Source: a virus. Taken from it: a stretch of DNA of 59,321 nucleotides. The stretch spans positions 1 through 59,321 of IMG/VR virus record IMGVR_UViG_3300022719_000028; one strand, given 5' to 3'. This document shows, piece after piece, positions 2,917 through 44,438 of the stretch; positions within the stretch are counted from its first letter, which is position 1, and the number at the start of each line of letters is the position of its first letter. The translations under genes and the position numbers were made by a program. Below the pieces are notes generated by a model that saw only the letters and a list, made by a program, of their open reading frames with translations, was not told where the DNA came from and made no database searches.

Positions 2917-2938
2917 TTCAACTGAAAGGCAAGGCAAG

Positions 2939-3955
2939 ATGAAGATCAAACAAAATTCAACCGACATTCCGAACAACATCATTCGCAAGGCGTGCGCGTT
3001 CGTTGCGGGCGAACTGGAAAATTTCAGTTTGAAAGATGTTCGCGTTCTGAAAGTCAAGAACACAAAGCGGCGATTCACCGGTTACGCTTATTATGATGGG
3101 CATGAAGTTGTTATTCGTATCGGGCCGGCAAATCATTTCCCTGTTGAAAGCAAACGACTCGGCGTGAAATTCAGAGTTGAATCGCGCGTTGAAGGATTGG
3201 TTGCAATCATCGCGCATGAATTCGGTCACGTTTGGCAAGGCAAGAAACATCAAACAAGCCGGCGGCCCGGAACTTCGCAAGAGGTTGAACGGCAATGCGA
3301 ACGATTTGAAAAATTGATCCTGAAAGCATTCCGCGAACGCTCGGAAGAATTCCTTGAAGCTTGGGGCATCGGCCCGGATTGCAAACCAAAGGCCGAACCG
3401 GAAGCGCCGGTTTCTGATATCGTTGCCGAACGGGCGGCGAATGTTGAATCAAAGGTTGCCGAATGGGAAGCCGAGATTGTGAAACGCGAACGGGCGTTGA
3501 AGCGGGCAAAGAAAACGTTGACGAAATGGAAAGCGAAACGCCGATACTACCAAAAGAAACTTTCGGAACCGGGCCGGCAACTTGCGGCGAAGGGAAGCAA
3601 ACCGCGAAAACTGAAACCGGAAACGGTTTTGAAAAACAAGATCGCAAAGTTCATTCGGCTTTACCTGCGCGACCGATACGGCATTCAATCCGGAACGCAT
3701 GAACTTTCTTTTTCCGAGTTCATCAACCGGGAAGGCGAACCATGTTTGACGCGGCCCGCGCCGGATGTTGTTGAAGATCCGTTCGTTGATTTCTTTGAAT
3801 GGAAGGATATGAAAAAGCTGGTTGCGCTGGGCGATGTTCTGGAAGTTCACGCATACAATCGACGAACCGGCGAACGCGATGGAATGGGCGAAGATGTTCC
3901 GATCCCTGAAACCGAAGAAAAGCTTGAACAAGAAATTGAAAGGTTTGCGAAATGA
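2939..3955 (+). CDS. SprT-like HExxH zinc-metallopeptidase-like protein with charged coiled-coil C-terminal half
   Basis: RFTGYAYYDGHEVVIRIG ... LVAIIAHEFGHVWQ (HExxH). RBS GAAAGGCAAGGCAAG-ATG. Confidence 0.5.
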   Translation: MKIKQNSTDIPNNIIRKACAFVAGELENFSLKDVRVLKVKNTKRRFTGYAYYDGHEVVIRIGPANHFPVESKRLGVKFRVESRVEGLVAIIAHEFGHVWQGKKHQTSRRPGTSQEVERQCERFEKLILKAFRERSEEFLEAWGIGPDCKPKAEPEAPVSDIVAERAANVESKVAEWEAEIVKRERALKRAKKTLTKWKAKRRYYQKKLSEPGRQLAAKGSKPRKLKPETVLKNKIAKFIRLYLRDRYGIQSGTHELSFSEFINREGEPCLTRPAPDVVEDPFVDFFEWKDMKKLVALGDVLEVHAYNRRTGERDGMGEDVPIPETEEKLEQEIERFAK

Positions 3956-4200: not shown

Positions 4201-4298
4201 TATCAGAATTGACCGAACGCCGATAAGTGATATCATATAAACATCGACGGAAGGCAAGGCCGTCAAACATCACTCGAAACTTTGAAAGGCACGGAATT
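4197..4298 (+). promoter_or_regulatory. early promoter/operator/leader cassette, copy 2
   Basis: TGATATCA 4198-4205. -35 TTGACC 4209-4214. TATCAT 4231-4236 (TGATATCA 4228-4235). Hairpin GACGG/CCGTC 4246-4264 with loop AAGGCAAGG. GAAAGGCACGGAAT before ATG 4299. Confidence 0.7.
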
Positions 4299-4535
4299 AT
4301 GACAGTCACAAAAACAGTTGATATCAAAACCGATTTGATTGAAAGCTTGGTTGAGCTTCGCGAGAAGATGGAAGCCGGCAAAACAACGGATGCCGGATAC
4401 ATTCTTTCGGAAGTTCTCGATGCGGTTTCATCATCATCGGTTTCGGTTACTTGCGAACGGGTTGTTCGCGACGATAAGCAACCGGGCGCGTTGCCGGAAG
4501 GCGAAACCAACTACGCGGCATACAACATCGACTGA
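4299..4535 (+). CDS. hypothetical early protein (78 aa)
   Basis: An internal ATG of ORF 4227-4535 is chosen because the upstream part of that ORF is the promoter/leader. Canonical RBS spacing. Terminator follows. Confidence 0.6.
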   Translation: MTVTKTVDIKTDLIESLVELREKMEAGKTTDAGYILSEVLDAVSSSSVSVTCERVVRDDKQPGALPEGETNYAAYNID

Positions 4536-4570: not shown

Positions 4571-4593
4571 TCTTATCACTGAAAGGCAAGGCA

Positions 4594-4920
4594 ATGAAGA
4601 ATCAAATCAAGGCATGCGGTTTGGAAGCAATCGAAATGATTTACGAAGGCGATACGGTTGCGGCGCATTCGATGGAATCGGAAAGCCGGGAATGCGAAGG
4701 CCCGCAAGCGAACTATGTTGTTGGGCAAGTTATGAAAACCGTTCAACCGGGCGAAGATCGCTTTTGCAAACATGCGGTTGAATGCTATCAAATCCGAATC
4801 ATGCTGGAAGTTAAAAAAGGCAAAACGAATTTTCGGCGTTCTGGTTTTCTTCATTATGTTCCGGTTAATGGAACAACCAACGTTTTCGGAAAGCCGAACA
4901 ACTTGGTTCATACGATCTGA
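4594..4920 (+). CDS. hypothetical early protein (108 aa)
   Basis: GAAAGGCAAGGCA-ATG RBS. The upstream part of ORF 4339-4920 overlaps the previous gene and a terminator. Confidence 0.6.
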   Translation: MKNQIKACGLEAIEMIYEGDTVAAHSMESESRECEGPQANYVVGQVMKTVQPGEDRFCKHAVECYQIRIMLEVKKGKTNFRRSGFLHYVPVNGTTNVFGKPNNLVHTI

Positions 4921-6685: not shown

Positions 6686-6892
6686 ATGAACCAACAAAGG
6701 CCGTTTTTGTATGGGAAAGTTAAGCGGGTTGATTGCTTTTGTGGAAAAACAACAATCCGGACAGTTAGAGGAAAAAGAGAAATAGAAATTTGCGACGGTT
6801 GCAAGCGCGACGTTCAACCGCATGAAATTTCGATTGACGATACCGGGCGAATGCTTCGGGAGTTGGACAAAAAAAACAAAGGCGCGGAATGA
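6686..6892 (+). CDS. small zinc-ribbon protein (68 aa)
   Basis: CFCG ... CDGC pairs. AAAGGA RBS. ATGA overlap with the next gene. Confidence 0.5.
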   Translation: MNQQRPFLYGKVKRVDCFCGKTTIRTVRGKREIEICDGCKRDVQPHEISIDDTGRMLRELDKKNKGAE

Positions 6893-8148: not shown

Positions 8149-8174
8149 TTTGAACTTTTTGAAAGGCTGACACA

Positions 8175-9023
8175 ATGGCAAATCCTCTAAAATGGCACGG
8201 CGGCAAAACGTATCTTGCCGGCGAAATCATCAAACGCTTTCCCGCGCATACGCGCTACGTTGAACCTTACTTCGGCGGCGGGGCCGTTCTCTTTGCAAAG
8301 CCGTTCGAAGGCGTTGCCGAGTATGCGAACGATCTGGATCTTGAGTTGATGAATTTTTGGCGCGTTCTGCAAAACGAATTTCTTGGGCCGTTGTTGATTC
8401 GGCGGTTGAACCTTGAACCGTTTTCAAAGCCGGGGTTCACGGTTGCAAATGCAAAATCGCAATATGCGGATCCGAATTCTTCGCCGGTTTTACGGGCGGC
8501 GAATTTCTTTGTTCGATACCGTCAAAGCCGGCAAGGCTTGGGGAAGGATTTCGCAACGCCAACATCGCGAACGCGGCGCGGAATGAACGAACAAGTTTCG
8601 GCATGGCTTTCGGCGGTTGATGGATTACCGGAAGCGGCGGAACGATTGCGACGGGTTGAAGTTCGCAACGAATCCGCGATTGATTGCATTACCGAACTCG
8701 ATTCGCCGGAAGCTTTGTTCTATCTGGATCCGCCATATCTTCCAGAAACTCGGAAAGCAAAAAAGACATACGGCGAATTTGAAGCAACGGTTGAACATCA
8801 TGAATTGCTTTTGAAAACGTTGGCGGGTATCAAAGGCAAATTCATTCTTTCCGGTTATCCTTCAACGATGTATCGAAAAGCGGCGAAGGCGAACAAATGG
8901 AAATGCGACAAAATAGAAATCGACAACAAAGCAAGTTCGGCGAAGAAAAAAGAAATCAAAACCGAATGCCTTTGGTTTAATTTCAGCCGGCGGGAATTCG
9001 GGAAGGGATTGAAAGCGGAATGA
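8175..9023 (+). CDS. Dam-type (D12 class) N6-adenine DNA methyltransferase
   Basis: KWHGGKTYLAGEI..YVEPYFGGGAVLF (SAM pocket) and FYLDPPY (DPPY at 8727-8738). RBS GAAAGGCTGACACA-ATG. Confidence 0.9.
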   Translation: MANPLKWHGGKTYLAGEIIKRFPAHTRYVEPYFGGGAVLFAKPFEGVAEYANDLDLELMNFWRVLQNEFLGPLLIRRLNLEPFSKPGFTVANAKSQYADPNSSPVLRAANFFVRYRQSRQGLGKDFATPTSRTRRGMNEQVSAWLSAVDGLPEAAERLRRVEVRNESAIDCITELDSPEALFYLDPPYLPETRKAKKTYGEFEATVEHHELLLKTLAGIKGKFILSGYPSTMYRKAAKANKWKCDKIEIDNKASSAKKKEIKTECLWFNFSRREFGKGLKAE

Positions 9024-11566: not shown

Positions 11567-11649
11567 TATCACATTGACGGGCGGCCGATAAGTGATATCA
11601 TACAGTTGTTGAAGGCAAGGCAACAAAACAAAACGAAAGGCACGGAATT
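11563..11649 (+). promoter_or_regulatory. early promoter/operator/leader cassette, copy 3
   Basis: TGATATCA 11564-11571. TTGACG 11574-11579. TATCAT 11596-11601. Hairpin TTGTTG/CAACAA 11606-11626 with the same AAGGCAAGG loop. GAAAGGCACGGAAT before ATG 11650. Confidence 0.7.
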
Positions 11650-11877
11650 ATGTTTTATATGGTTGGCGGCAAAGTTCCCGTTCAGTACGAAACCGGATAC
11701 AAAGGTTTTCAATTCAAAGTTCTTGAAGTTGTTACAACCGAATCGGCTTCACTGGAAGGAATGAAAGCATACGTTGAACTCGGATACAAAGGCGTTTGCC
11801 GACGCATCGCAACCGCAAACGAATTCTTCGAATTCAGCGAAAACGGCGGCGAAAACTTAACTTTCCAAAAAGTTTGA
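11650..11877 (+). CDS. hypothetical early protein (75 aa)
   Basis: Sits between cassette promoters 3 and 4. Canonical RBS. Confidence 0.6.
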   Translation: MFYMVGGKVPVQYETGYKGFQFKVLEVVTTESASLEGMKAYVELGYKGVCRRIATANEFFEFSENGGENLTFQKV

Positions 11878-11883
11878 AAAAAA

Positions 11884-11971
11884 GTGATATCAGGATTGAC
11901 GGCGGGCCGATAAGTGATATCATATAAACATCTGGCAAACGGCAAGGCAAACAAACGAAAGGCACGGAAAG
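11884..11971 (+). promoter_or_regulatory. early promoter/operator/leader cassette, copy 4
   Basis: TGATATCA 11885-11892. TTGACG 11896-11901. TATCAT 11918-11923. The leader contains GGCAAGGCAA 11941-11950 but has no clean hairpin. Confidence 0.65.
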
Positions 11972-12280
11972 ATGAAAACGGCATTCAGCGAAACTCAAGA
12001 GTTCAAAAAAGTTCAGGCGCTCAAAGCGGCAATTGATTTCGTTCGCGACGAAACGAAAGAAATAACTTCGGACGGTTCGGATATGTCGCCGGAACTTTGC
12101 GTTGTTGAATTCAAAGTTTGTTTCGCTGGCGATGCAAATTCATTTTGCGTTGATTGGTTTCAAGGCGCTGTCACAATGGATCGCGGATTTGAAGGCCGGC
12201 CAACGATTCGCATGTTCGTTCAAACGACACGTTCGGGCGGCTTCTCAGTCAAACGCGAACGCATTAAATCAATGGCATGA
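11972..12280 (+). CDS. hypothetical early protein (102 aa)
   Basis: GAAAGGCACGGAAAG-ATG RBS. Confidence 0.6.
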   Translation: MKTAFSETQEFKKVQALKAAIDFVRDETKEITSDGSDMSPELCVVEFKVCFAGDANSFCVDWFQGAVTMDRGFEGRPTIRMFVQTTRSGGFSVKRERIKSMA

Positions 12281-12291
12281 AAGGCGCGGCA

Positions 12292-12585
12292 ATGACGGTT
12301 GAACTCAACAATCTTTTTGAATTTGAACTTCCGGAATCAATCACAATCAAAACAGGCAAGGCAATGAAACTTTCAAAAGAACAATACAAAGAAACGCTTT
12401 CGGGTTTGGGCGATGCGTTGAACTCTTTTCGTTCGGCGCGTGAACATGAACGCGAAGCGGAAGCGAAGCGGGTTCAATTCTGGATTGATGAATTGGAACC
12501 GGCGGAAATGAAACGCAAAGATCAACGTTTGATCGAAGCGGCAACTCGGAAAATCCGGGAAGCGCGAAAAGCAATTTCAAACTGA
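12292..12585 (+). CDS. hypothetical protein (97 aa, charged/helical)
   Basis: GAAAGGCGCGGCA-ATG places the start at 12292 rather than 12277. Confidence 0.55.
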   Translation: MTVELNNLFEFELPESITIKTGKAMKLSKEQYKETLSGLGDALNSFRSAREHEREAEAKRVQFWIDELEPAEMKRKDQRLIEAATRKIREARKAISN

Positions 12586-12598
12586 AAGGCACGGAAAG

Positions 12599-12940
12599 AT
12601 GATTGACAGAAACGCAAGAATCGTTCGGGCGATTGAAAAAAAGATCGTTCGAAACTTACTGGAAACGATGAAGGCCGAACATGGTTATTGGTTTCGGGTT
12701 TATGATCCGGAACCGGCAACAACGGCAACGCAAAACGTTGATGATGCGATGAACGCGATTTTTGCCGTTGACTCAGCAACCGTTCGTTTTACTGACAATC
12801 CCGAAAGCGGGTATCGCGGTTCGGTTTTGTTGGTTCTCGGAAATGACGGTTGGGATGTTATCTGCGATTATTCGGTTCGGCTTGAAGATGAAATGAAGCC
12901 GATCAACGAATTCGCCGACAACATCGAACAACATATTTGA
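12599..12940 (+). CDS. hypothetical protein (113 aa)
   Basis: GAAAGGCACGGAAAG-ATG RBS. Terminator follows. Confidence 0.6.
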   Translation: MIDRNARIVRAIEKKIVRNLLETMKAEHGYWFRVYDPEPATTATQNVDDAMNAIFAVDSATVRFTDNPESGYRGSVLLVLGNDGWDVICDYSVRLEDEMKPINEFADNIEQHI

Positions 12941-12947
12941 ACGAACG

Positions 12948-12975
12948 CGGCCCGGTTCGCCGGGCCGTTCTTTTA
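12948..12975 (+). terminator. intrinsic terminator
   Basis: CGGCCCGG 12948-12955, TTCG loop, CCGGGCCG 12960-12967, then TTCTTTT. Confidence 0.75.
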
Positions 12976-13006
12976 CTCTCGAATTTATTTTGAAAGGCTG
13001 GCAAAG

Positions 13007-13447
13007 ATGGACGGGCAAAACGGAACGCGAAAAACGCCGAACGTTATGACACAAGAAAACGCGATTGCAATGGCGGCGGCGGCGCTGGCGAATCAATCCG
13101 AAATCCGAAATCGCGCTTGGTTGAACGCGGCGGAAATCGGAAACTTCATTGCCGGTAAAGCGGGGATTGAACCGGATGATTTCAGACCGGCGGCGCATCA
13201 TGTTCACAAAATCTTGAAAGGCGTGAACATCGAATTCACGGCGTTAAACGTCAAGCAAACGGGCGGCGTTGAAACTCGCAAGCGAAACGCGGTTGCATCG
13301 GAACATCTGGATCTTCTCGCGGGGATGTTCAAGGCGTTGCCGAAGCAACAAAAAGAACAGGCCGATTTGTATTTTCGCGAACGCAACGGCGGGAAAGGCG
13401 TTGCCGAATTTCTCGGCATTTCTCAAGATACGCTTTTTCCGAATTGA
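13007..13447 (+). CDS. hypothetical protein (146 aa), possible C-terminal HTH
   Basis: GAAAGGCTGGCAAAG-ATG RBS. GKGVAEFLGISQDTLF looks HTH-like. Confidence 0.55.
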   Translation: MDGQNGTRKTPNVMTQENAIAMAAAALANQSEIRNRAWLNAAEIGNFIAGKAGIEPDDFRPAAHHVHKILKGVNIEFTALNVKQTGGVETRKRNAVASEHLDLLAGMFKALPKQQKEQADLYFRERNGGKGVAEFLGISQDTLFPN

Positions 13448-13459
13448 CAAACGGCAAGT

Positions 13460-13593
13460 TGACGGGAAGAATTGAAACCGTCAGCCGGCGGCGCTTGCCT
13501 TGCCAGAATAGCGCCGTTGCCGTTGCCGGAAGGGGGATTGCTTTGGGGATTCTATTTCCTCAACATTCCGTGCCTACCCTTCCGGCTTTTTTT
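13460..13593 (+). ncRNA. candidate anti-leader small RNA
   Basis: Three hairpins, the last a 10-bp stem 13525-13534/13577-13586 plus T7. Loops carry CTTGCCTTGCC (13494-13504) and CATTCCGTGCCT (13564-13575), exact reverse complements of the two conserved RBS leaders. No credible ORF. Confidence 0.45.
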
Positions 13594-13638
13594 CTGCGCT
13601 GGCGAAAAAGTTTATTTCAAAATCTTTTTGGTTTTTAT

Positions 13639-13746
13639 GTGAATTCACATTGACGGGCGGCCGATAAGTGATATCATTGGCGGCGTTGACAACAGGCGCG
13701 GAAGCCGAATTTCTTTATATGAATCTTTTACGAAAGGCGCGATGCA
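13639..13746 (+). promoter_or_regulatory. early promoter/operator cassette, copy 5 (drives the RHH-csrA-recombination operon)
   Basis: TGAATTCA 13640-13647. TTGACG 13650-13655. TATCAT 13672-13677 (TGATATCA 13669-13676). The leader differs from the other copies (GGCGCGGAAGCC). Confidence 0.65.
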
Positions 13747-14001
13747 ATGGCGAAAGGCCGGGACACAACAACGCTTCACACTCCGGAAGGCTATCTTTCG
13801 GCGGTTGATGAAAATCTTTTGATTGAAGGCGAAAGCCGGGGCGCATTCATCCAACGAATCCTTTGGTTGTTACTGACGGAACGGCTGGAAGTTATTCGCG
13901 ACGATGAAGGCGAAATCATCGACATACAAAAAACGGATCGGAAGCGTTTCAAAAATTATCCGGAACCATTAGTTCGGGGCCGGGCGAAAAAAACGAAGTG
14001 A
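13747..14001 (+). CDS. ribbon-helix-helix (CopG/Arc/MetJ-like) DNA-binding protein candidate
   Basis: TTTLHTPEGYLSAVDENLLIEGESRGAFIQRILWLLL fits a strand-helix-helix pattern. First gene behind promoter 5. Confidence 0.45.
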   Translation: MAKGRDTTTLHTPEGYLSAVDENLLIEGESRGAFIQRILWLLLTERLEVIRDDEGEIIDIQKTDRKRFKNYPEPLVRGRAKKTK

Positions 14002-14048
14002 GCGTTTCACTTTGAATTGATGGATTAGTTTTTTTGAAAGGGAATTCA

Positions 14049-14330
14049 ATGTTAGTTTTATCTCGAAAAGCGAATGAACGAATTTTGATCGGCGATGATG
14101 TTGAAATTGTTGTTGTTGAAGTTCGCGGCAAGCGGGTTCGGCTTGGCATCAAAGCGCCGGGCGAAACTCGGATCATTCGCGCAGAATTAAAGGCGGCTGA
14201 CAATGATGGAAACAATGACGAACTCGGAATTCAACCATTTGAAAAAGACGTTGAAGAAAACCGACAACGCGACAAAAACGATCTTCAACATGCGGAAGAT
14301 GATCGAACAGGCGTTGCCGGAAGATCTTGA
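14049..14330 (+). CDS. csrA: CsrA/RsmA-family RNA-binding translational regulator with acidic C-terminal extension
   Basis: MLVLSRKANERILIGDDVEIVVVEVRGKRVRLGIKAPGETRIIRAEL aligns residue by residue with canonical CsrA (E. coli MLILTRRVGETLMIGDEV..VRIGVNAPKEV.VHREEI). Confidence 0.85.
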   Translation: MLVLSRKANERILIGDDVEIVVVEVRGKRVRLGIKAPGETRIIRAELKAADNDGNNDELGIQPFEKDVEENRQRDKNDLQHAEDDRTGVAGRS

Positions 14331-14535
14331 CGAACTACGCGAAGCGGTCAAACATCATCGGATCCCGGTTGAAATCAAAACGGTTTCGCCGGGGCCGTTG
14401 AATCTTCCGTTCTATTACGAAGATCCGGTTTCGCGGGAATGCTTTCGCTTCCGGACGATCAAAGCGGCGGCGATTCATTGCAATCGTTTTTATGATGCCG
14501 TTAATCCGGAAGGGCAAAAGATAGTTGAAATCTGA
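14203..14535 (+). CDS. hypothetical protein (110 aa)
   Basis: AAAGGCGGCTGACA-ATG RBS of the common family. Overlaps the csrA tail by 128 nt in another frame. Confidence 0.5.
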   Translation: MMETMTNSEFNHLKKTLKKTDNATKTIFNMRKMIEQALPEDLDELREAVKHHRIPVEIKTVSPGPLNLPFYYEDPVSRECFRFRTIKAAAIHCNRFYDAVNPEGQKIVEI

Positions 14536-14578
14536 AAACGCAAAAACTTGAAACAAAACTTTTTGAAAGGCTGACACA

Positions 14579-16114
14579 ATGGCGAAGAAAAAGACGGCGC
14601 GGGCAAAAAACAAAAAGCCGGCTGACGGAATCGATGTAGAATCAATCGGCCCGGTTGATCAAATTCATATTCCTATTCCGGAAGGCGGCGGCGTTGTCGC
14701 ATTGAAGGGGCCGAACGGGGCCGGGAAAACGAAAACGCTGGAAGCGGCGGAAGCTTTGGTTTCTGGCAACGCTCGCATTCTCTCGGCTTCTGACGGGGCC
14801 GATGCGGGGCTTGTGGATGGATTCGGCGCTTTGATCCGGGTTGGACGAACAAGCCGGAAGGCGGGCGAACTGGAAGCCGTATCGATCATCGGGAAGTTCT
14901 CAGTTGCCGATTTAGTGGATCCGGGCTTCAAAGATGAAAACGCATGCGATGCGGCGCGGGTGAAAGCATTGATTCAACTTGCCGGGAAAACGGCGGAAGA
15001 ATCCGATTTCAAAGGTTTGTTCAATTCCGATGAACAGTTCAAAGAAATCGTTGGCGATGAACTCAAAGATCTTTCGTCGATGGTCGATATGGCCGGCAAA
15101 GTCAAACGGCAATGCGAAAGCGCGGCCCGGAAGCTTGAAAGCCAAGCCGACAAAAAAGAAACGGAAGGGCAAGGCATCATTGACGCGGCCGAACCGGAAC
15201 TTGAAAACTTGCCGGAAGGATCGCTTGAAGATTCGCAAGCCGAGTTGAACCGGGCGATTCGCGAACAATCGCGGCTTGAAGGCGTTCTTGAATCGCTGGA
15301 ATCCGGAAGGCAACAACGCGAAAGCGCGGCAAAGCAAATTGAAGAATTGCGAAAGAATGCCGGCGATGTTGAAAAGCTTGAAACGCTGGCAGACGCGAAA
15401 GCCGATATCGTTGCCGAAGCGAACGATAAAGTTGAACGGTTGAAAAAAGAGTTGGCCGAAGCCGAAACCGAAGCGAAAGATGCACAACGCGATTATCGGC
15501 AAGCTTGCGAAGCGAAAGATAACGCGATTTCGGCGAATGAAGAAATCGAAAAGCTTGAAAAGATTCTTTCAACTCAAAGAGAGGGTTCGGAAGATGATGT
15601 TCGCGAACAACTGGAAACCGCGAAACAAACGGCCGATGAATTGACCGATAAGGTTTCATCACTCAAAGGCGCGGAACGCATTCGCGAACGTTACGAAAAA
15701 GGGAAGGCGTTGAAAATCGAAGCCGACGATTTGAACGCCGAAGCGGAAGCGCTTCGCGATATCGGGTATTCAACCGATGATGTTCTTTCGGAAGCCGTAA
15801 GCGGCATCACAACGGCCGATCTGAAAATTGAAGGCGGCCGGCTGGTAACGGAAACGAAACGCGGAACAACGCTATTTCATGAACTCTCGCACGGCGAACG
15901 CTGGAAGATCGCGATTCAAGTTGCAATCGATATCGTCAAACAGGCGGCCGAAGAATCCGGAAAACCACCGTTGTTGATTTGCCCGCAAGAGGCATGGGAA
16001 GCTTTGGATCCGATCAACCGGGGCGAAGTCAACGAAGCTTTGAAGGGAACCGGAATCGTTATGCTGACGGCGCTTGCCGATGTTGGCGAACTCCGGGCGG
16101 AAAGCTTAGAATAA
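14579..16114 (+). CDS. SMC/RecN/Rad50-like ABC ATPase with central coiled coil
   Basis: Walker A GPNGAGKT. Long E/K/A-rich coiled coil. LSHGERWK signature-like motif. LLICPQEAWEALD Walker B-like. Confidence 0.7.
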   Translation: MAKKKTARAKNKKPADGIDVESIGPVDQIHIPIPEGGGVVALKGPNGAGKTKTLEAAEALVSGNARILSASDGADAGLVDGFGALIRVGRTSRKAGELEAVSIIGKFSVADLVDPGFKDENACDAARVKALIQLAGKTAEESDFKGLFNSDEQFKEIVGDELKDLSSMVDMAGKVKRQCESAARKLESQADKKETEGQGIIDAAEPELENLPEGSLEDSQAELNRAIREQSRLEGVLESLESGRQQRESAAKQIEELRKNAGDVEKLETLADAKADIVAEANDKVERLKKELAEAETEAKDAQRDYRQACEAKDNAISANEEIEKLEKILSTQREGSEDDVREQLETAKQTADELTDKVSSLKGAERIRERYEKGKALKIEADDLNAEAEALRDIGYSTDDVLSEAVSGITTADLKIEGGRLVTETKRGTTLFHELSHGERWKIAIQVAIDIVKQAAEESGKPPLLICPQEAWEALDPINRGEVNEALKGTGIVMLTALADVGELRAESLE

Positions 16115-16124
16115 ATCTCTCGCG

Positions 16125-16179
16125 CTCGGCATCGGCAAAAATGGATTGAACGGGCGCACGATGCCGGGCGTTTTATTTT
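16125..16179 (+). terminator. probable intrinsic terminator
   Basis: CGGCATCG 16127-16134 / CGATGCCG 16159-16166, then GGCGTTTTATTTT. The loop is long. Confidence 0.45.
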
Positions 16180-16203
16180 CTCGAAACTTTGAAAGGCTGA
16201 CAA

Positions 16204-17211
16204 ATGATTGATTCAAAGATTGCAGTTGAAGGGCCGAAGGCGCATTCTCCCGAATGGTACGATATCCGGTTTTTCGATCCGGATCGGGAAAGGCCGGTTG
16301 TGATAACGGCAAGCGAATCGGCGGCGGCTTGCGGCGCTTCGCCGTATCAAACCGCGCTTGAACTCTACATGACGAAGCGGCGCGAAATGGAAGCTTGGGA
16401 ACCGGACGACGAACAAAAAGAGCGCATGCGATTCGGTCAACGGATGGAATCGGTTGTTATCGACGAATACAAAAATCAAAACGATTGCGAAGTTGAAACC
16501 GATTTGCCGTTGTATCTTTCAAATCGATTTGAATTCTTGGGCGCAACTCCGGATGCGTTCGCGCGGAAAGATGAAGACGTTTGGGAACTGGAAGCCAAAA
16601 ACTCGAATTGGCGAATGTTCGATCAAAGCGGCGAAGATGAAAACAAATACGGCGAAGCCGGAACGGATCAAGTTCCCGCGTATATGATGTTTCAAGCGCA
16701 ACAACAAATGATCGTTCTTGGTTTGAACCGGGTTGATTTTCCCGTTCTGCAAAACGGGAATCGAATGTTGATTTACCGGGTTGAAGCTTATGAAGCTTTG
16801 CAAAATAAAATCATTGAATGCGGGAAAGAACTTGCCGAACGCATCATCAACGGCGAACCGCCGGATCCGGATTACACGCATGACGGAACCGCGAAATTGC
16901 TTCAAGAAATGTACGGCGTTTCGGTCGGAACCGTTATTGAACTCGATGTTGATGCCGAAGAACTTTGGTTTCGTCAAATTGAGATTGCCGAGAAGATCAA
17001 AGAACTTGAAGCGGAAAAAAAGGCAATCAAAAACAAGATGTTGGATATGATGGGCGATGCTGAGATTGCCCGTTTTCCGGGGCGAAATTTCAAATTGAAG
17101 CGAACCGCTATTGATGATTCGTATTGGACGGAACAAGATGTTCAAAAGATTGTGATCGGAGATATAAAGCGGCGCGGACATATCCGCATCACAAAATCAA
17201 AAGACAAATAA
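16204..17211 (+). CDS. YqaJ / lambda-Exo-type recombination exonuclease
   Basis: ITASESAAACGASPYQTALELYMTKR (YqaJ N-terminal signature). GATPDAF ... WELEAKNS (PD-ExK). Confidence 0.8.
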   Translation: MIDSKIAVEGPKAHSPEWYDIRFFDPDRERPVVITASESAAACGASPYQTALELYMTKRREMEAWEPDDEQKERMRFGQRMESVVIDEYKNQNDCEVETDLPLYLSNRFEFLGATPDAFARKDEDVWELEAKNSNWRMFDQSGEDENKYGEAGTDQVPAYMMFQAQQQMIVLGLNRVDFPVLQNGNRMLIYRVEAYEALQNKIIECGKELAERIINGEPPDPDYTHDGTAKLLQEMYGVSVGTVIELDVDAEELWFRQIEIAEKIKELEAEKKAIKNKMLDMMGDAEIARFPGRNFKLKRTAIDDSYWTEQDVQKIVIGDIKRRGHIRITKSKDK

Positions 17212-17280: not shown

Positions 17281-17302
17281 CTCGAAAGCGAAAGGCTGAC
17301 AA

Positions 17303-18454
17303 ATGGCAAGCGGAAATCAAATGCTGACACAAGATCAAATCGACGCGCAACGCGGAATGAGTTTGCGCAAATGGTTGAACAAGCCGGAAGTTCTTGAAGA
17401 TCTCGAATCTTCATTGACGGGTTGGATTTCAGCCGAACAATTCAAATCGCAAATTTTAGTTGATATCAATTCGGAAACTCTCGCGCGTTGTTCTCCCGAA
17501 TCAAAGTTTGCGGCGGTTCTCAAATGCGCAACGCTTCAACTGTTACCGTCATTGAATCACGTTGCGTTGATTCCTTCCAAAGTTCGCGAAGACGGCGTTG
17601 TTGTCAAAACCGAAGTTCGCGTTACGGTTCAATGGCAAGGCTATCAAGCTTTGATGCTTCGGCATCCGGACGTTAAAGATGTGAACGCTTACTTGGTTCA
17701 CGAATCGGATTCGTACAAATACGATCAATTAAATAAACGAATCGTTGAACATTCTTTTGATCCGTTGGATCCGCAACGAACTTTCAACAACTTCAATGAC
17801 GTTCGCGGCGGGTATGTAGTTGTTGAGTACAAAGATCCGAACCGGGCTGATAAACATCATTTCGTTACATGCGAAACAATCCGCAAGGCGCGGGGATGCG
17901 CAGAAACCGGCACGATTTGGGAAGCATGGTTTTTCGAAATGTGTATGAAAACTCTCTATCGCAACGCATACGCGCGGCGGGTTGTTCCGATGGATCCAAT
18001 GCTTGCGCGACGAATGGAAGAATTGAACCGGCATGAAGACGAACAACTCGGCAACGATCCGAAGCGAATCATTGATTCAACCGCAACCGCGATTGATCGA
18101 AAGCCGGAAAAACAGAAACCGCAAAGCCGGGCCGCGCAATTGGCTTCGGACGATTCGCCGGAATCTTCGCCGGTGGAACCGGAACCGAAAGCAACGGAAC
18201 CGGAACCGATGAACGAACCGGAACCGGAACCGGAACTTCCAGAAACGCCAACGGATGAACCAAGGCGCGAAACATCGGACGAACGCGGGCATTTCCAACG
18301 GCTGAAAGAAAAGGCCGAATGCGCAACAACCGTGAAAGAAATCGATTCGCTGAATGATGAAGCCGGCGAATTGGTTTCAAGCGGGGAACTGACGAACGGC
18401 GAATTCGGAATTCTGGTACAGTTGTTTTCGGAACTTGCAATGAAACTCGATTGA
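17303..18454 (+). CDS. recT: RecT-family single-strand annealing protein with Pro/Glu-rich C-terminal region
   Basis: SPESKFAAVLKCATLQLLPSLNHVALIP ... VQWQGYQALMLRH ... TLYRNAYARR. Adjacent to the YqaJ exonuclease. Confidence 0.8.
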   Translation: MASGNQMLTQDQIDAQRGMSLRKWLNKPEVLEDLESSLTGWISAEQFKSQILVDINSETLARCSPESKFAAVLKCATLQLLPSLNHVALIPSKVREDGVVVKTEVRVTVQWQGYQALMLRHPDVKDVNAYLVHESDSYKYDQLNKRIVEHSFDPLDPQRTFNNFNDVRGGYVVVEYKDPNRADKHHFVTCETIRKARGCAETGTIWEAWFFEMCMKTLYRNAYARRVVPMDPMLARRMEELNRHEDEQLGNDPKRIIDSTATAIDRKPEKQKPQSRAAQLASDDSPESSPVEPEPKATEPEPMNEPEPEPELPETPTDEPRRETSDERGHFQRLKEKAECATTVKEIDSLNDEAGELVSSGELTNGEFGILVQLFSELAMKLD

Positions 18455-26316: not shown

Positions 26317-26684
26317 ACGAACCGAATAACGAAATCGGTTTGCCGAACGAAATGCGGGAACGCATCGAAGCGCAAGGCATGGAAGTTCCGGCGGGCGTTG
26401 ATTTGTTTCAACTCGCGCGGAAGATCAACAAAGGCGAAGTTGATCCGGGCAACGCTTGCATCCGTTTTGACGATGAATCGCTTGGTCGGCATTCATACGA
26501 AATAACGGTTCAAGCTTCGCGAAAAGCGCCGGGGCCGGGCGTTCGGCCGGATTACCGATTCCCACCGGGAAGCGCGGCGGAATATATCAATCAAACGAAC
26601 AAACAGTTCGGCGGCGTTCTACCGGGTTCACCCTCGGAAAAAGTGATTTCAGAAAAAACAAAAAAAGTTTGCAGAAAACATTGA
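26304..26684 (+). CDS. hypothetical protein (126 aa)
   Basis: Overlaps the upstream gene by 13 nt. Its stop lies inside the -35 of cassette 6. Confidence 0.5.
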   Translation: MQGMNEPNNEIGLPNEMRERIEAQGMEVPAGVDLFQLARKINKGEVDPGNACIRFDDESLGRHSYEITVQASRKAPGPGVRPDYRFPPGSAAEYINQTNKQFGGVLPGSPSEKVISEKTKKVCRKH

Positions 26685-26768
26685 CGGACGGCCGATAAGT
26701 GATATCATATAAACATCGACGGAAGGCAAGGCCGTCAAGAACGAAACTCAAAACAAAGGCACGGAATC
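26681..26768 (+). promoter_or_regulatory. early promoter/leader cassette, copy 6
   Basis: TTGACG 26681-26686. TATCAT 26703-26708 (TGATATCA 26700-26707). Hairpin GACGG/CCGTC 26718-26736 with loop AAGGCAAGG. The distal dyad is absent. Confidence 0.65.
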
Positions 26769-26969
26769 ATGATCGTTACGGCAAAAGCAAAGAATAAAGC
26801 GGAAACTCGCAAGGTTGTTCAATGGTGCGAAAAGTTCGCGGCGGTTGCATGCGGGCGATTGCATCGCGGATATTGCACGGTTCACTTTTCAAGCGCTCCG
26901 GCGTATGCACGGCAAGAAATGCTTGAAGCATACGAAGCCGATGGAATACCGGTTATTTCAATCGACTGA
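26769..26969 (+). CDS. hypothetical early protein (66 aa)
   Basis: AAAGGCACGGAATC-ATG. Terminator follows. Confidence 0.6.
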   Translation: MIVTAKAKNKAETRKVVQWCEKFAAVACGRLHRGYCTVHFSSAPAYARQEMLEAYEADGIPVISID

Positions 26970-27009: not shown

Positions 27010-27029
27010 TTCAACTGAAAGGCAAGGCA

Positions 27030-27245
27030 ATGATCATTCACAGTGAACAGGCAAGCGGCAAATGCGATTCATGCGGCAAAGGCAACGCAACGCTTGGTTG
27101 CGTAGCGCAAGGCGCAACGGGCCGTTGGTGCGAAGTGATGTGGATTTGCGAAGATTGCGGCCCGGAAGATCCGGCGGCAATCAAAACCGCAAAAGAGGCG
27201 CGGGCGGAAATTGAGGCATCCGGGAACGGTTGGCCGGAATTTTAA
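27030..27245 (+). CDS. Cys-rich small protein (71 aa)
   Basis: CDSCGK ... C ... C ... CEDC. RBS GAAAGGCAAGGCA-ATG. Confidence 0.55.
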   Translation: MIIHSEQASGKCDSCGKGNATLGCVAQGATGRWCEVMWICEDCGPEDPAAIKTAKEARAEIEASGNGWPEF

Positions 27246-27272: not shown

Positions 27273-27378
27273 GTGAATTCACATTGACGGCGGGCCGATA
27301 AGTGATATCATTAAAAATGTAAGGCGAACGGCAAGGCGATTCGCCAACAATCAAAACTTTTTTGAAAGGCACGGAACT
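27273..27378 (+). promoter_or_regulatory. early promoter/operator/leader cassette, copy 7
   Basis: TGAATTCA 27274-27281. TTGACG 27284-27289. TATCAT 27306-27311. Hairpin GGCGAA/TTCGCC 27323-27345 with loop CGGCAAGGCGA. Confidence 0.7.
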
Positions 27379-28272
27379 ATGATTTTTTCTTCAATTGCAA
27401 CTGACACTCGCGAAGCTTTGGAAACGGCTTTCCCTTTTTCGGTTGACAAGTTTCCGGTTTCATTCCCGGAAGGCATCAAAGCGCCGTTTTACGGTTTGCT
27501 TCGATCTGACGGCGTTCCCGTTGGCAAATCATCCGTTGGGGCCGGCTATCATCCGCATACTTTGGAAGATGTTGCGGCGTTGGTCGAATCGGCAAAATCG
27601 GCGTTCGCGGATGTTGAAGGCGAAACGCAATTTGAATTCGAATGCTTTTGGAATGATGGGCATGTTGTGAACTTGCAACCGGGCGCAGAGTATCGCCGGG
27701 AAGTTGCCCGCAACGATTTGATTTATCCGAAGCTTTCGATTTCCGCCGGATATGACGGTTCGCCGTTCGTTGGAACTCTCGGCATGTTCCGGGAAGCTTG
27801 CGAAAATTTGATGTTCCCGAAAATGGTTTCGGGTACAACCGTTCGGATTAAGCATACGAAATCGATGCCCGAACGGCTGGAAGAATTGAACGCGAAGTTC
27901 CGACGCATGCGGGCCGGTTGGGATGGAATCGTTGCCGAAGCCGAAGAAATGGAACAACGCGAAGTTCGCGTTTCTGAAATCCTCCAAGCCGTTTACGGCG
28001 ATATTCCGGAAGGGGCGTCAAAAACGGTTGCGAAAAATCATACCGAACGAACGAAAGAAATCGTTCAACGGATGTTTGAAGAGCGCGACCGATTAGGCCG
28101 GCGGGATATGGGGAAAGATAAGGCAACCGGTTGGGAGTTGTTCAACGCAATTCAAGGTTACGAACAACATGATCGGCGGCGCAACTCGAATCCATCCGAT
28201 TTTGAACGGGCCGTTCTTGCGGCTGGCGAAGATTCGGTTCGCGATGCCGAACGGTTGATTCTGGCAAGCTGA
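27379..28272 (+). CDS. DUF932/DUF945-family protein (phage/plasmid-associated)
   Basis: Size and motifs (GYHPHTLEDV, FECFWNDGHVV, VRIKHTKSM) match my memory of the DUF932 family. Not verified by search. Confidence 0.6.
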   Translation: MIFSSIATDTREALETAFPFSVDKFPVSFPEGIKAPFYGLLRSDGVPVGKSSVGAGYHPHTLEDVAALVESAKSAFADVEGETQFEFECFWNDGHVVNLQPGAEYRREVARNDLIYPKLSISAGYDGSPFVGTLGMFREACENLMFPKMVSGTTVRIKHTKSMPERLEELNAKFRRMRAGWDGIVAEAEEMEQREVRVSEILQAVYGDIPEGASKTVAKNHTERTKEIVQRMFEERDRLGRRDMGKDKATGWELFNAIQGYEQHDRRRNSNPSDFERAVLAAGEDSVRDAERLILAS

Positions 28273-32389: not shown

Positions 32390-32551
32390 ATGTTTTTACG
32401 GCGATATTTGATTGAAACGGCTGACGGCAAACAAAGCGAAATCGTTGCGCGGGATTGGATCGAAGCGGAATTGATAATTGAAATCCGCAACCGGGGCGAA
32501 CGAATCGTTCGGCTTGTCTATCGGCCGGAAGAAATGAAAGGCGCGGAATGA
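32390..32551 (+). CDS. hypothetical protein (53 aa)
   Basis: ATG 32390 within ORF 32369-32551. Confidence 0.4.
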   Translation: MFLRRYLIETADGKQSEIVARDWIEAELIIEIRNRGERIVRLVYRPEEMKGAE

Positions 32552-33231
32552 TGAATGATGCGACTGAAAACAAACGGCTTGAATCTTTGTTGAAGGCCGT
32601 TCGGACGTTGGCGAACTCGATTACCGAAGATCCCGTTTCTGCGCCGGATGGTTGTTATTGCAATCCGGGCGAATGCACGGATGAAGATCCGAGTTGCTTG
32701 GAACGGGCGGCGCGGGTTGCAATTGACGAAATCAAAAAGGCGTTTGAATTTGAAGTTCGATCAACAACGCCGGGGCGGCTTTCAAACTTTCCCGAATTTG
32801 TTTTTGTCGATGAATGGGACAAACAGAACAAGCGGGAACCGGGAATCAATTACGGAATCCGAACGCTTGAATTTCTTGGGGCGATGCAAGGCGAAACGCA
32901 TCGAATCATTACGCAACGCGAAGCCGATATTGCAACGGCCGTTTTGCAATGGCTTGGAACCAATTGCGGCGGGGCGTTTCTGGCAACATGCGAAAGGCGG
33001 ATTCGGGATGCCCGCGATTCTCAGTCAATAACATGGGACGCGCAGCGGCGGCGTTATGTGAGGGAAGGGGCGAACGCAAAGCCGGATCGAATTGCAGTTG
33101 AAGCCGAACGCATCGCGGTTCAGTATATCAATTCTGCGAGTAAAACCGACAAAGGCGCGAACGCATCGTTTCTTTCGCTTGCCGAAGATATTGAAGCGGC
33201 AATGCGGGCCGTCATTGAAAGCGAACGATGA
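32548..33231 (+). CDS. hypothetical protein (227 aa)
   Basis: GAAAGGCGCGGA-ATG RBS. Confidence 0.55.
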   Translation: MMNDATENKRLESLLKAVRTLANSITEDPVSAPDGCYCNPGECTDEDPSCLERAARVAIDEIKKAFEFEVRSTTPGRLSNFPEFVFVDEWDKQNKREPGINYGIRTLEFLGAMQGETHRIITQREADIATAVLQWLGTNCGGAFLATCERRIRDARDSQSITWDAQRRRYVREGANAKPDRIAVEAERIAVQYINSASKTDKGANASFLSLAEDIEAAMRAVIESER

Positions 33232-37873: not shown

Positions 37874-37896
37874 CTTCAACAAACGAAAGGCACGGA

Positions 37897-38238
37897 ATGA
37901 AAACCATTATCACGCATCCGAACAACGTTAAGTTTTTGAGGGAACAACTTGAAGGCGGTTCGCTATTTGAAGGGCAACCGTTGTTCGGGATCCCGATTCA
38001 AACAAATCCGTTCATCAAAGAAACTCGTTTGACTGGCAATTACATTTTGCCGAACGGCGATGTTGTTGAACCTTTCAGCGAATGGAAGATTGAAACGCGG
38101 TTCATTGATTACGGGCCGGAAGATCTCGATTATCTTCTGAAAGCTGGTATTGTGAAGCCGGAACGGGTTCGCGAATACTACGTTGCCGATACGAACGGAT
38201 TCGATTTGATCCGTTCGCCATTTATGCAATTGACTTGA
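37897..38238 (+). CDS. hypothetical protein (113 aa)
   Basis: Early-type RBS GAAAGGCACGGA-ATG. Confidence 0.55.
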   Translation: MKTIITHPNNVKFLREQLEGGSLFEGQPLFGIPIQTNPFIKETRLTGNYILPNGDVVEPFSEWKIETRFIDYGPEDLDYLLKAGIVKPERVREYYVADTNGFDLIRSPFMQLT

Positions 38239-43472: not shown

Positions 43473-43575
43473 GTGATATCAACTATTTACTTCGCCGATA
43501 AAAGTGATATCATTAAAACATCGACGGAAGGCAAGGCCGTCACAAACAAAACAACATTCTGAAAGGCACGGAATT
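43473..43575 (+). promoter_or_regulatory. early-type promoter/operator/leader cassette, copy 8 (inside the head module)
   Basis: TGATATCA 43474-43481. -35 TTTACT 43486-43491. TATCAT 43508-43513. Hairpin GACGG/CCGTC 43523-43541 with loop AAGGCAAGG. Confidence 0.65.
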
Positions 43576-44013
43576 ATGACTACTCTCGAAATTTTGAATC
43601 CCTGTTGCAAACTGACAACCGAAGCGGAAATCAATCGCGTTCGCGGCGAAATGGAAATTGATGAATTGTTCGCCGATTGGACGGATGAAAAGAAAAACGA
43701 ATTCGCTGCAAATTACGAATCGATTCTTCGGATGCAAGATGCTCTTGAAACGGCCGGCGTTGAAGTCAACGTTGAACATCATCTTGAGAAAATGACGAAC
43801 GTTCAAACGGTTTGGGGCGGGCATTTGAAAGATGCAACTTTGCATTACCGTTGGCGGGTTGTTGTTTCGGGCAATACCTTTCCGATCAAAGATCTTTTGA
43901 AATCGCTTGGTTTCAAATGGGAACGGTTTGAAAAGCAATGGGTTCGCAACGCGAAAAAAGCCGTTGGCAAAGAGGCGAATGAAGTTCGCAAAGCAATCGC
44001 GGCGGCAATCTAA
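43576..44013 (+). CDS. hypothetical moron protein (145 aa)
   Basis: GAAAGGCACGGAATT-ATG. Has its own promoter and terminator. Confidence 0.6.
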   Translation: MTTLEILNPCCKLTTEAEINRVRGEMEIDELFADWTDEKKNEFAANYESILRMQDALETAGVEVNVEHHLEKMTNVQTVWGGHLKDATLHYRWRVVVSGNTFPIKDLLKSLGFKWERFEKQWVRNAKKAVGKEANEVRKAIAAAI

Positions 44014-44049: not shown

Positions 44050-44072
44050 TCTCAACTCGAAAGGCTGACACA

Positions 44073-44438
44073 ATGGAAAATCCAACGATTACACTGGCAG
44101 AAAATTACGTTCAAGAAATCGGCGAAGATGGGCCGTTCACTTCGCAACGTTTCAACGTTGAAGCCGTTTATCCGGACGGCCGGCGTTTCCATCATTTCAA
44201 AGCGTATCGTTCAATTGATGATGCGGCGGCGTTGGCGGGCCGTATCGAACGGGCCGTTTTCAATGGCGAATGCAATCCGGCGGATTCCGAATACTGGAAT
44301 CGCGGCTTTGATGTTTACGGTTCGGAAGCTTATCAACGCAACGGCGGCGAACATGAACTTCAAAAAGCCGATGTTGAAGCCGAGTACGGGCCGGGAACGT
44401 ATCAACCGGGCGGGCCGGGTTATCTTCACCGGGCATAA
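44073..44438 (+). CDS. hypothetical protein (121 aa)
   Basis: GAAAGGCTGACACA-ATG RBS. Confidence 0.55.
   Translation: MENPTITLAENYVQEIGEDGPFTSQRFNVEAVYPDGRRFHHFKAYRSIDDAAALAGRIERAVFNGECNPADSEYWNRGFDVYGSEAYQRNGGEHELQKADVEAEYGPGTYQPGGPGYLHRA

Follow-up and report, generated by a model that had tools for sequence, protein, structure and literature searches.

We report that positions 13444-13593 of a 59,321-nucleotide stretch of viral DNA (IMG/VR virus record IMGVR_UViG_3300022719_000028, the whole of which we call the window) are a conserved, structured, non-coding element of the plus strand, and that this element probably encodes a trans-acting antisense small RNA (sRNA) that would block ribosome binding at about 20 genes of the phage itself. 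This reading, drawn from sequence comparison, is carried by the element's conservation in related phages, its RNA structure, the strand on which that structure is read, its complementarity to the leaders of phage genes, and the way in which it co-varies with these leaders. An earlier note on this DNA had proposed a trans-acting antisense RNA that masks the translation-initiation regions (TIRs) of about a dozen early genes. Element conservation, compensatory stems and box-leader co-variation argue for such an RNA; the early genes stand as predicted targets, but genes of the structural region are predicted targets as well, about 20 in all. The element recurs in two related phage lineages, here called R and S, which together with the window make up the three lineages compared below.

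The ribosome-binding regions of the phage are unusually uniform: behind the Shine-Dalgarno (SD) sequence GAAAGG stands a spacer of one of three kinds, which is GGCAAGGCAA in class A, GGCACGGAA in class B and GGCUGAC in class C. Over the whole genome, the motif of GAAAGG, spacer and start codon occurs 39 times on the plus strand, where all plausible genes lie, and not once on the minus strand. The distance from SD to AUG is long (9-10 nt) and fits a host 16S tail ending in ...CCUCCUUUC. Within the element, three boxes are each complementary to one leader class; the third of them (box 3) was absent from the earlier note and likewise changes with the leaders. The coordinates, hairpins, terminator and promoter-like TTGACA-17-AAGAAT pattern given in that note all proved correct on checking, as did its counts of box matches for individual genes. 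The element has the following features:

13444..13449, plus strand: -35-like hexamer TTGACA, overlapping the TGA stop of the upstream gene; left edge of the conserved element, identical in R and S
13467..13472, plus strand: -10-like hexamer AAGAAT, 17 nt after the -35-like hexamer; AACAAT at the same 17-nt spacing in R and S
13460-65/13478-83 (13458-13485), plus strand: hairpin 1
13480..13593, plus strand: proposed small RNA of about 114 nt, its 5' end placed from the -10-like hexamer and its 3' end from the U-run
13479..13487, plus strand: box 3, CGUCAGCCG (core GUCAGCC), complementary to class-C leaders GAAAGGCUGAC; it would be the 5' end of the RNA
13488..13517, plus strand: hairpin 2, with an 8-bp stem (13488-95/13510-17) and the 14-nt loop UGCCUUGCCAGAAU
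13494..13504, plus strand: box 1, CUUGCCUUGCC (DNA CTTGCCTTGCC), complementary to class-A ribosome-binding site (RBS) spacers (GGCAAGGCAAG)
13525..13586, plus strand: compound terminator hairpin, with a 10-bp basal stem (13525-34/13577-86), a GGA/UCC helix, an internal loop and an apical stem-loop
13564..13575, plus strand: box 2, CAUUCCGUGCCU (DNA CATTCCGTGCCT), complementary to class-B leaders AGGCACGGAAU(G), covering the spacer together with part of the SD and, for some genes, the AUG
13587..13593, plus strand: U7 tail of the terminator; U6 in R and UUUUAUUAU in S

Folded on the plus strand, the element has a minimum free energy of -67.1 kcal/mol (z = -4.8, against z = -3.8 for the minus strand) and consists of a hairpin domain and a long compound hairpin, followed by U7. 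The terminator hairpin on its own reaches -31.8 kcal/mol (z = -3.8). Box 2 had been placed in a simple loop of this hairpin, which the fold does not bear out: its UCC instead pairs with GGA in the compound hairpin, and GUGCCUA lies in the internal loop. The hairpin (13525-13586) and its U7 tail form an intrinsic terminator at the 3' end of the element, which is kept in R and S; it was not listed by a simple terminator scan because that scan allows loops of at most 8 nt. The promoter-like TTGACA-17-AAGAAT scores 10/12, and box 1 is complementary not only to class-A spacers but also to the AAGGCAAGGC motif at the 5' end of transcripts from the promoter-leader cassettes described below. Rfam returned no family at gathering score anywhere in the window, C4 (RF01695) included, and a permissive Rfam search of 13300-13800 gave only two noise matches (mir-1252 and Ysr49), both far below threshold. 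Likewise, blastn of 12000-16500 against public phage records gave no match.

The leaders complementary to the three boxes are:

2924..2941, plus strand: class-A leader GAAAGGCAAGGCAAGAUG, with further class-A leaders at 4581-4596 and 27017-27032; pairing energies of -12.6, -8.4 and -8.3 kcal/mol, respectively
4284..4301, plus strand: class-B leader GAAAGGCACGGAAUUAUG, with further class-B leaders at 2666-2683, 11635-11652, 11957-11974, 12584-12601, 26754-26771, 27364-27381, 37885-37899 and 43561-43578
6877-6891 and 32536-32553, plus strand: class-B leaders of the G variant
14565..14581, plus strand: class-C leader GAAAGGCUGACACAAUG, with further class-C leaders at 8161-8177, 16191-16206, 17290-17305 and 44059-44075

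These box-leader matches are not due to chance, as the earlier note had also held. With at most one mismatch allowed over the whole genome, GGCAAGGCAAG has 13 matches where 0.9 are expected, 12 of them plus-sense and box 1 the sole minus-sense copy, and AGGCACGGAATG has 10 where 0.31 are expected, nine of them plus-sense and box 2 again the only one in minus sense. The element is moreover the top 150-nt segment of the plus strand for 9-mers antisense to TIRs (40, against 17 for the next) and for 10-mers (21 against 10). Interactions were then calculated from a seed, local extension of the duplex and the opening energies of both partners, unrestricted RNAduplex having given meaningless long duplexes, and it was from this calculation that the third seed, box 3, emerged. 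The energies reached -8 kcal/mol or lower for 19 of 64 TIRs, which include all class-A and class-B leaders. Pairing with class-B leaders ranges from -9.4 to -15.5 kcal/mol, and pairing with the class-C leaders of the genes at 8175, 14579 and 16204 from -7.3 to -9.2 kcal/mol; the gene at 17303 has the same GGCUGAC leader, but its best-scoring site lies elsewhere, and 44059-44075, outside the scored set, carries GGCUGAC too. The 12 best energies sum to -144 kcal/mol, compared with -74 +/- 14 for random plus-strand segments and -93 +/- 17 for dinucleotide shuffles, and none of 300 controls in the window reached this sum. When the R version of the RNA was set against the leaders of R, the sum was -141, compared with -55 +/- 16 for controls, of which none (0/150) reached it.

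Conservation of both antisense boxes in related phages, which had been named as a check, was found in all three lineages, with box 1 invariant and box 2 tracking the leaders of its own phage. Box 2 reads CAUUCCGUGCC against leaders GGCACGGAAU in the window and UUUCCGCGCC against GGCGCGGAAA in R and S, the window having a U opposite the leader A where R and S have a C. The boxes and leaders compare as follows:

Class-B leader: window, GGCACGGAA (n = 9); R, GGCGCGGAA (n of at least 14, none with A); S, GGCGCGGAA (n = 2, none with A)
Box 2: window, ...CCGUGCC; R and S, ...CCGCGCC
Position beside box 2 (box/leader): window, AUUCC/GGAAU; R and S, UUUCC/GGAAA
Box 3: window, GUCAGCC; R, GUCAGCC (box 3 conserved at 9/9 positions); S, GUUAGCC
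Class-C leader: window, GGCUGAC; R, GGCUGAC; S, GGCUAAC (three leaders, on contigs L019/L020 of a group called Q)

The S contig (L064) and the Q contigs (L019/L020) are probably sister contigs or one phage. Pairing energies calculated across lineages gave no clean specificity, the R version of the RNA still pairing strongly with the leaders of the window. Whole spacer classes differ in concert between lineages (GGCACGGAA versus GGCGCGGAA, and GGCTGAC versus GGCTAAC, in the window, L002-L020 and L064).

The structure is conserved together with the boxes. For this comparison we used a covariance-model alignment, RNAalifold on a MAFFT alignment having mispaired hairpin 2. In the three-lineage alignment, standard pairs make up 95.2% of stem cells, and both partners have changed in nine pairs; none of 500 column shuffles reached any of the pairing measures, and controls with slid partners were 33-53% paired. 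Hairpin 2 is the clearest case, with five compensated stem pairs around the 14-nt loop UGCCUUGCCAGAAU, which is invariant at 14/14 positions. In the terminator hairpin, one pair of the basal stem is altered on both sides and two change from G-C to G.U across lineages, and three further pairs are altered on both sides in the inner helices. Hairpin 1 is the weakest helix and has no compensated pair, which fits a start site inside this hairpin, near 13480. The pairing also indicates the strand: read as plus-strand RNA, 100 of the 105 stem cells pair, and read as minus-strand RNA 91 do, an excess that arises because all 10 wobble pairs are valid on the plus strand only. A U-run follows the hairpin in all three lineages. 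TTGACA, the 17-nt spacing and AA(G/C)AAT are kept as well, whereas 8 of the 29 columns of this stretch have diverged, mostly in the spacer.

The related phages came to light through the promoter pattern of the cassettes and through ATPase-gene homologues (60-87% protein identity); searches for related loci with single proteins (the 146-aa protein encoded upstream of the element, and the ATPase) gave nothing. The R homologue lies at L015:1387-1538, was found by short-word blastn, and is identical in L036 and in eight further contigs (L065-L074); the S homologue lies at L064:2201-2354 and was reached through a conserved neighbor gene (window 12277-12585). A covariance model built from the window element alone, which was used to align the three versions, scores R at 85 bits and S at 70 bits. 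In all three lineages the element keeps the same relative position, from a gene end through the element to a cassette promoter, and homology begins exactly at ATTGACAAA, overlapping the upstream stop codon, and extends into the next cassette promoter. The upstream protein is just 35-36% identical between lineages, so the non-coding segment is more constrained than its coding neighbor. A word-indexed search found no relative of this 146-aa neighbor, whereas tblastn did find its homologues at that identity. The surroundings are less constant: R has an extra 126-aa gene between the homologue of the upstream protein and the element. The location directly upstream of the RHH-csrA operon, noted earlier, holds in the window but is not a conserved trait, because in R another cassette separates the two; on the Q contigs a plain terminator stands ahead of the RHH-csrA operon.

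Wider searches added no lineage. A scan of IMG/VR with a 16-mer from the loop gave 14 matches, all due to chance, scans of IMG/VR with a degenerate promoter and with the GGCTAAC leader returned no further element and no Q-lineage contig, and a scan of one metagenome found only another lineage-R contig. Weak covariance-model matches inside genes (L002:3999-4149 on the minus strand, L007:4763-4913, L009:5111-5261 at 16.9 bits, and L115:1637-1768 at 19.6 bits) were set aside as probable noise; those in L002, L007 and L009 are one site, on the antisense strand of a conserved gene.

We propose the following mechanism. The RNA would be transcribed as a discrete molecule from its own weak sigma-70-type promoter, TTGACA-17-AAGAAT, which is recognized by its match to the consensus, or would alternatively derive from the 3' end of the mRNA upstream, and it would end at the long compound hairpin and U-run. 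Three seeds would then be available, one for each leader class and complementary there to the sequence that separates GAAAGG (the SD) from the AUG: the 5'-terminal GUCAGCC would pair with class C, the hairpin-2 loop CUUGCCUUGCC with class A and with the 5' AAGGCAAGGC motif of transcripts from the cassettes, and CAUUCCGUGCCU in the terminator hairpin with class B. If it occurs in vivo, such pairing would take in the spacer and a portion of the SD, at times the AUG as well, thereby blocking binding of the 30S subunit and lowering translation of about 20 genes at once; the stability of the target mRNAs would probably be lowered too. We assume repression rather than activation because of the position of the pairing.

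Several observations weigh against this antisense mechanism. The -10 hexamer agrees with the consensus at just 4/6 positions. Hairpin 1, if real, could form only in a transcript begun ahead of the proposed promoter and would mask box 3; this box is just 7 nt long and, taken alone, is not significantly enriched. Box 2 is partly sequestered in the terminator hairpin and would need to be freed. The count of 19 low-energy targets was also attained by 1 of 150 shuffles, and these 19 have motifs in common and are therefore not independent. The structural alignment took the fold of the window as its template, a choice that favors the pairing counts. Only three lineages are known, of which R and S have an identical box 2, and the link between S and Q rests on the same run series and on each being the sole third lineage found, the contigs having no overlap. 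Finally, the phage contains nothing complementary to the CAGAAU that is invariant in the loop of hairpin 2, or to the apical UUCUAU, and the RNA may thus have another partner.

The last of these points leads to a different account, in which the RNA exists yet chiefly binds something other than the leaders, either a host mRNA or a protein (possibly phage CsrA or Hfq) that recognizes UGCCUUGCCAGAAU and the apical UUCUAU, with leader pairing secondary or absent. A hairpin with a U-tail is a typical Hfq module, and csrA lies 0.6-2 kb downstream in every lineage whose contigs extend that far (window, R and Q). On the plus strand, however, GGA triplets lie in stems of the predicted folds rather than in loops, and S retains just one, in the terminator hairpin; none of the CsrB/Rsm families of Rfam gave a match, and the co-variation of boxes 2 and 3 with the leaders would be left unexplained, so we regard this account as unlikely. 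We give a similarly low probability to the element being only a structured 3' untranslated region and terminator, which ends the upstream early transcript and insulates the next cassette and whose complementarity has no function in trans. Its place between gene end and cassette promoter in all three lineages and its terminal hairpin with U-run are what such a terminator would show, plus-strand read-through transcription is expected anyway, and hairpin 1 keeps its pairing through G.U changes, which fits an RNA begun upstream. Yet the other terminators of these phages are all short GC hairpins; a terminator needs neither an invariant 14-nt loop nor a conserved TTGACA-17-AAnAAT nor boxes that track leaders, and the pairing energies exceed those of all controls in two phages.

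Function on the minus strand, whether as a leader/RBS mimic serving as decoy or as the decayed inverted promoter-leader cassette that the earlier note raised as a competing explanation, is very improbable. The minus strand does read GGUAGGCACGGAAUG and CUGGCAAGGCAAG and also folds, and a mimic would track leader variants just as an antisense RNA would. But the motif order is reversed, GGCAAGGCAA coming before AGGCACGGAA in the cassettes; no AUG follows the RBS-like motif in R and S; all 10 wobble pairs turn into A.C mismatches and the U-run becomes a 5' A-run. In addition, there are no GAAAGG-spacer-start motifs on this strand genome-wide, no minus-strand gene or terminator lies nearby, and its sole promoter-like match (9/12) lies inside the element. 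The compensatory stems would not persist in a decayed remnant, and the flanking gene is much less conserved than the element. Least credible of all is a small protein, even though open reading frames (ORFs) of 69 aa (13444-13653) and 56 aa (13472-13642) exist and some pipelines called a 62-aa ORF over the R element as a gene. Gaps of 1, 2, 1 and 3 nt between the three lineages place conserved blocks in different frames and destroy any common frame, and the overlapping ORFs are therefore not genes, as the earlier note had judged; they also extend through the terminator into the next promoter and lack a GAAAGG-type RBS. On balance, we favor the antisense sRNA.

The window spans a whole phage genome, about 59.2 kb long. 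The same 126 nt occur at both of its ends (12-137 and 59196-59321), so the contig is closed or the phage genome terminally redundant; this overlap sits within an AAC/GAC/CAC codon-repeat tract, with repeats in 1-280 and 58978-59321. The encoded proteins include portal, Mu-F-like, HK97-type capsid, YqaJ, RecT and a CsrA homologue, and the product of the gene at 321-1823, 500 aa long, has both a GNAT acetyltransferase and a family-2 glycosyltransferase domain. Promoter-leader cassettes stand in front of many genes:

2590-2646, 4210-4266, 11574-11625, 11896-11953, 13650-13700, 26682-26738, 27284-27312 and 43487-43543: cassettes with the repeated promoter-leader pattern TTGAC(G/C)-16-TGATATCAT

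In several copies, the promoter pattern is followed by a 5' hairpin, GACGG-AAGGCAAGG-CCGTC, the loop of which is complementary to box 1 and could make a loop-loop kissing contact with it. The CsrA homologue (PF02599) stands behind a small gene of 83-85 aa in every lineage (window 13747-14001 and 14049-14330; L012 1089-1592; L019 110-624), and ACGGAA within class-B leaders may be a CsrA site. The gene upstream of the element (13007-13447, 146 aa; homologues at L064 1752-2204 and L015 554-994) is fast-evolving and has no Pfam domain. The C-terminus of its product resembles the start of a helix-turn-helix (..LGISQDTLFP), but the idea of a truncated helix-turn-helix was dropped, as the S homologue has a similar end. 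R is rearranged in this region: duplicates of a 98-aa gene, with identical leaders, flank the element on both sides (L065 2489-2785 and 4421-4717), and L074 1-2059, also of lineage R, has a permuted gene order. Many assemblies end 1.4-1.6 kb upstream of the ATPase gene (left ends of L012-L018), which suggests strain-level variability.

Beyond the antisense sRNA itself, we tentatively raise the possibility of genome-wide, RNA-based control of translation. In such a scheme the three seeds would define three ‘address classes’ of leaders, and the need for complementarity would explain both the uniform SD-AUG spacers of about 20 unrelated genes and their concerted change between lineages; the RNA might serve as a timer or shut-off, a counterpart of T4 RegA/RegB, and might act together with phage CsrA, which likely has GGA sites inside class-B leaders. 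Few phage sRNAs are known to control phage genes, and c4, sar and OOP each act on a single neighboring message. If the antisense reading is true, one RNA with three seeds would serve three leader classes across a whole phage genome, a virus could coordinate the translation of many genes through one riboregulator, and a riboregulator could shape the sequence of ribosome-binding spacers. Nature supplies three allele sets (U/A versus C/G in box 2, A/U versus U/A beside box 2, and C/G versus U/A in box 3), and the element is a new RNA family for the annotation of uncultured phages.

Among known systems, the element most resembles in working principle the c4 RNA from the immunity region of P1/P7, likewise a phage-encoded sRNA of similar size. 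Short, loop-exposed boxes of c4 pair around the RBS and block translation, and boxes and targets differ together between related phages, which is the basis of P1/P7 heteroimmunity (PMC12197685); the element, too, has boxes that are complementary to RBS sites and differ together with them between related phages. This is resemblance and not membership: the element has no sequence or structure similarity to c4 and, given the lack of an Rfam match, stands outside the c4 family. Furthermore, the one target of c4 is the icd-ant mRNA of its own operon, from which it is processed, whereas the element has three seeds for three leader classes on about 20 dispersed genes and, it seems, a promoter of its own. 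P22 sar and lambda OOP also repress a phage gene by pairing at or near the RBS (PMC12197685), but each lies opposite a single target to which it is fully complementary, while the element lies far from its predicted targets and on the same strand. For T4 RegA, a translational repressor, and RegB, an SD-cleaving nuclease, which target the initiation regions of many phage mRNAs and shut off early messages (PMC3014915), the analogy is functional only, as these are proteins with loose motifs and we propose RNA-RNA pairing. With CsrB/RsmY/RsmZ the element shares a small structured RNA that ends in a terminator near a csrA gene, but it lacks repeated GGA in hairpin loops and an Rfam match. Its terminator hairpin and U-tail, its short conserved single-stranded seeds (a 5'-terminal one included) and the predicted occlusion of the SD-AUG region of many mRNAs recall the multi-target enterobacterial sRNAs GcvB, Spot 42 and RybB and sRNAs derived from 3' untranslated regions, and an origin at an mRNA 3' end is possible for enterobacterial sRNAs (PMC9438474) as for the element. 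It differs from them in its origin in a lytic-type phage, with genes of that same phage as predicted targets, in pairings that are perfect over 10-12 nt, and in targets that appear to have uniform spacers matching the regulator. Judged by its sequence, the element nonetheless has the general hallmark of a trans-encoded base-pairing sRNA, namely conserved, predicted-accessible seeds complementary to distant initiation regions.

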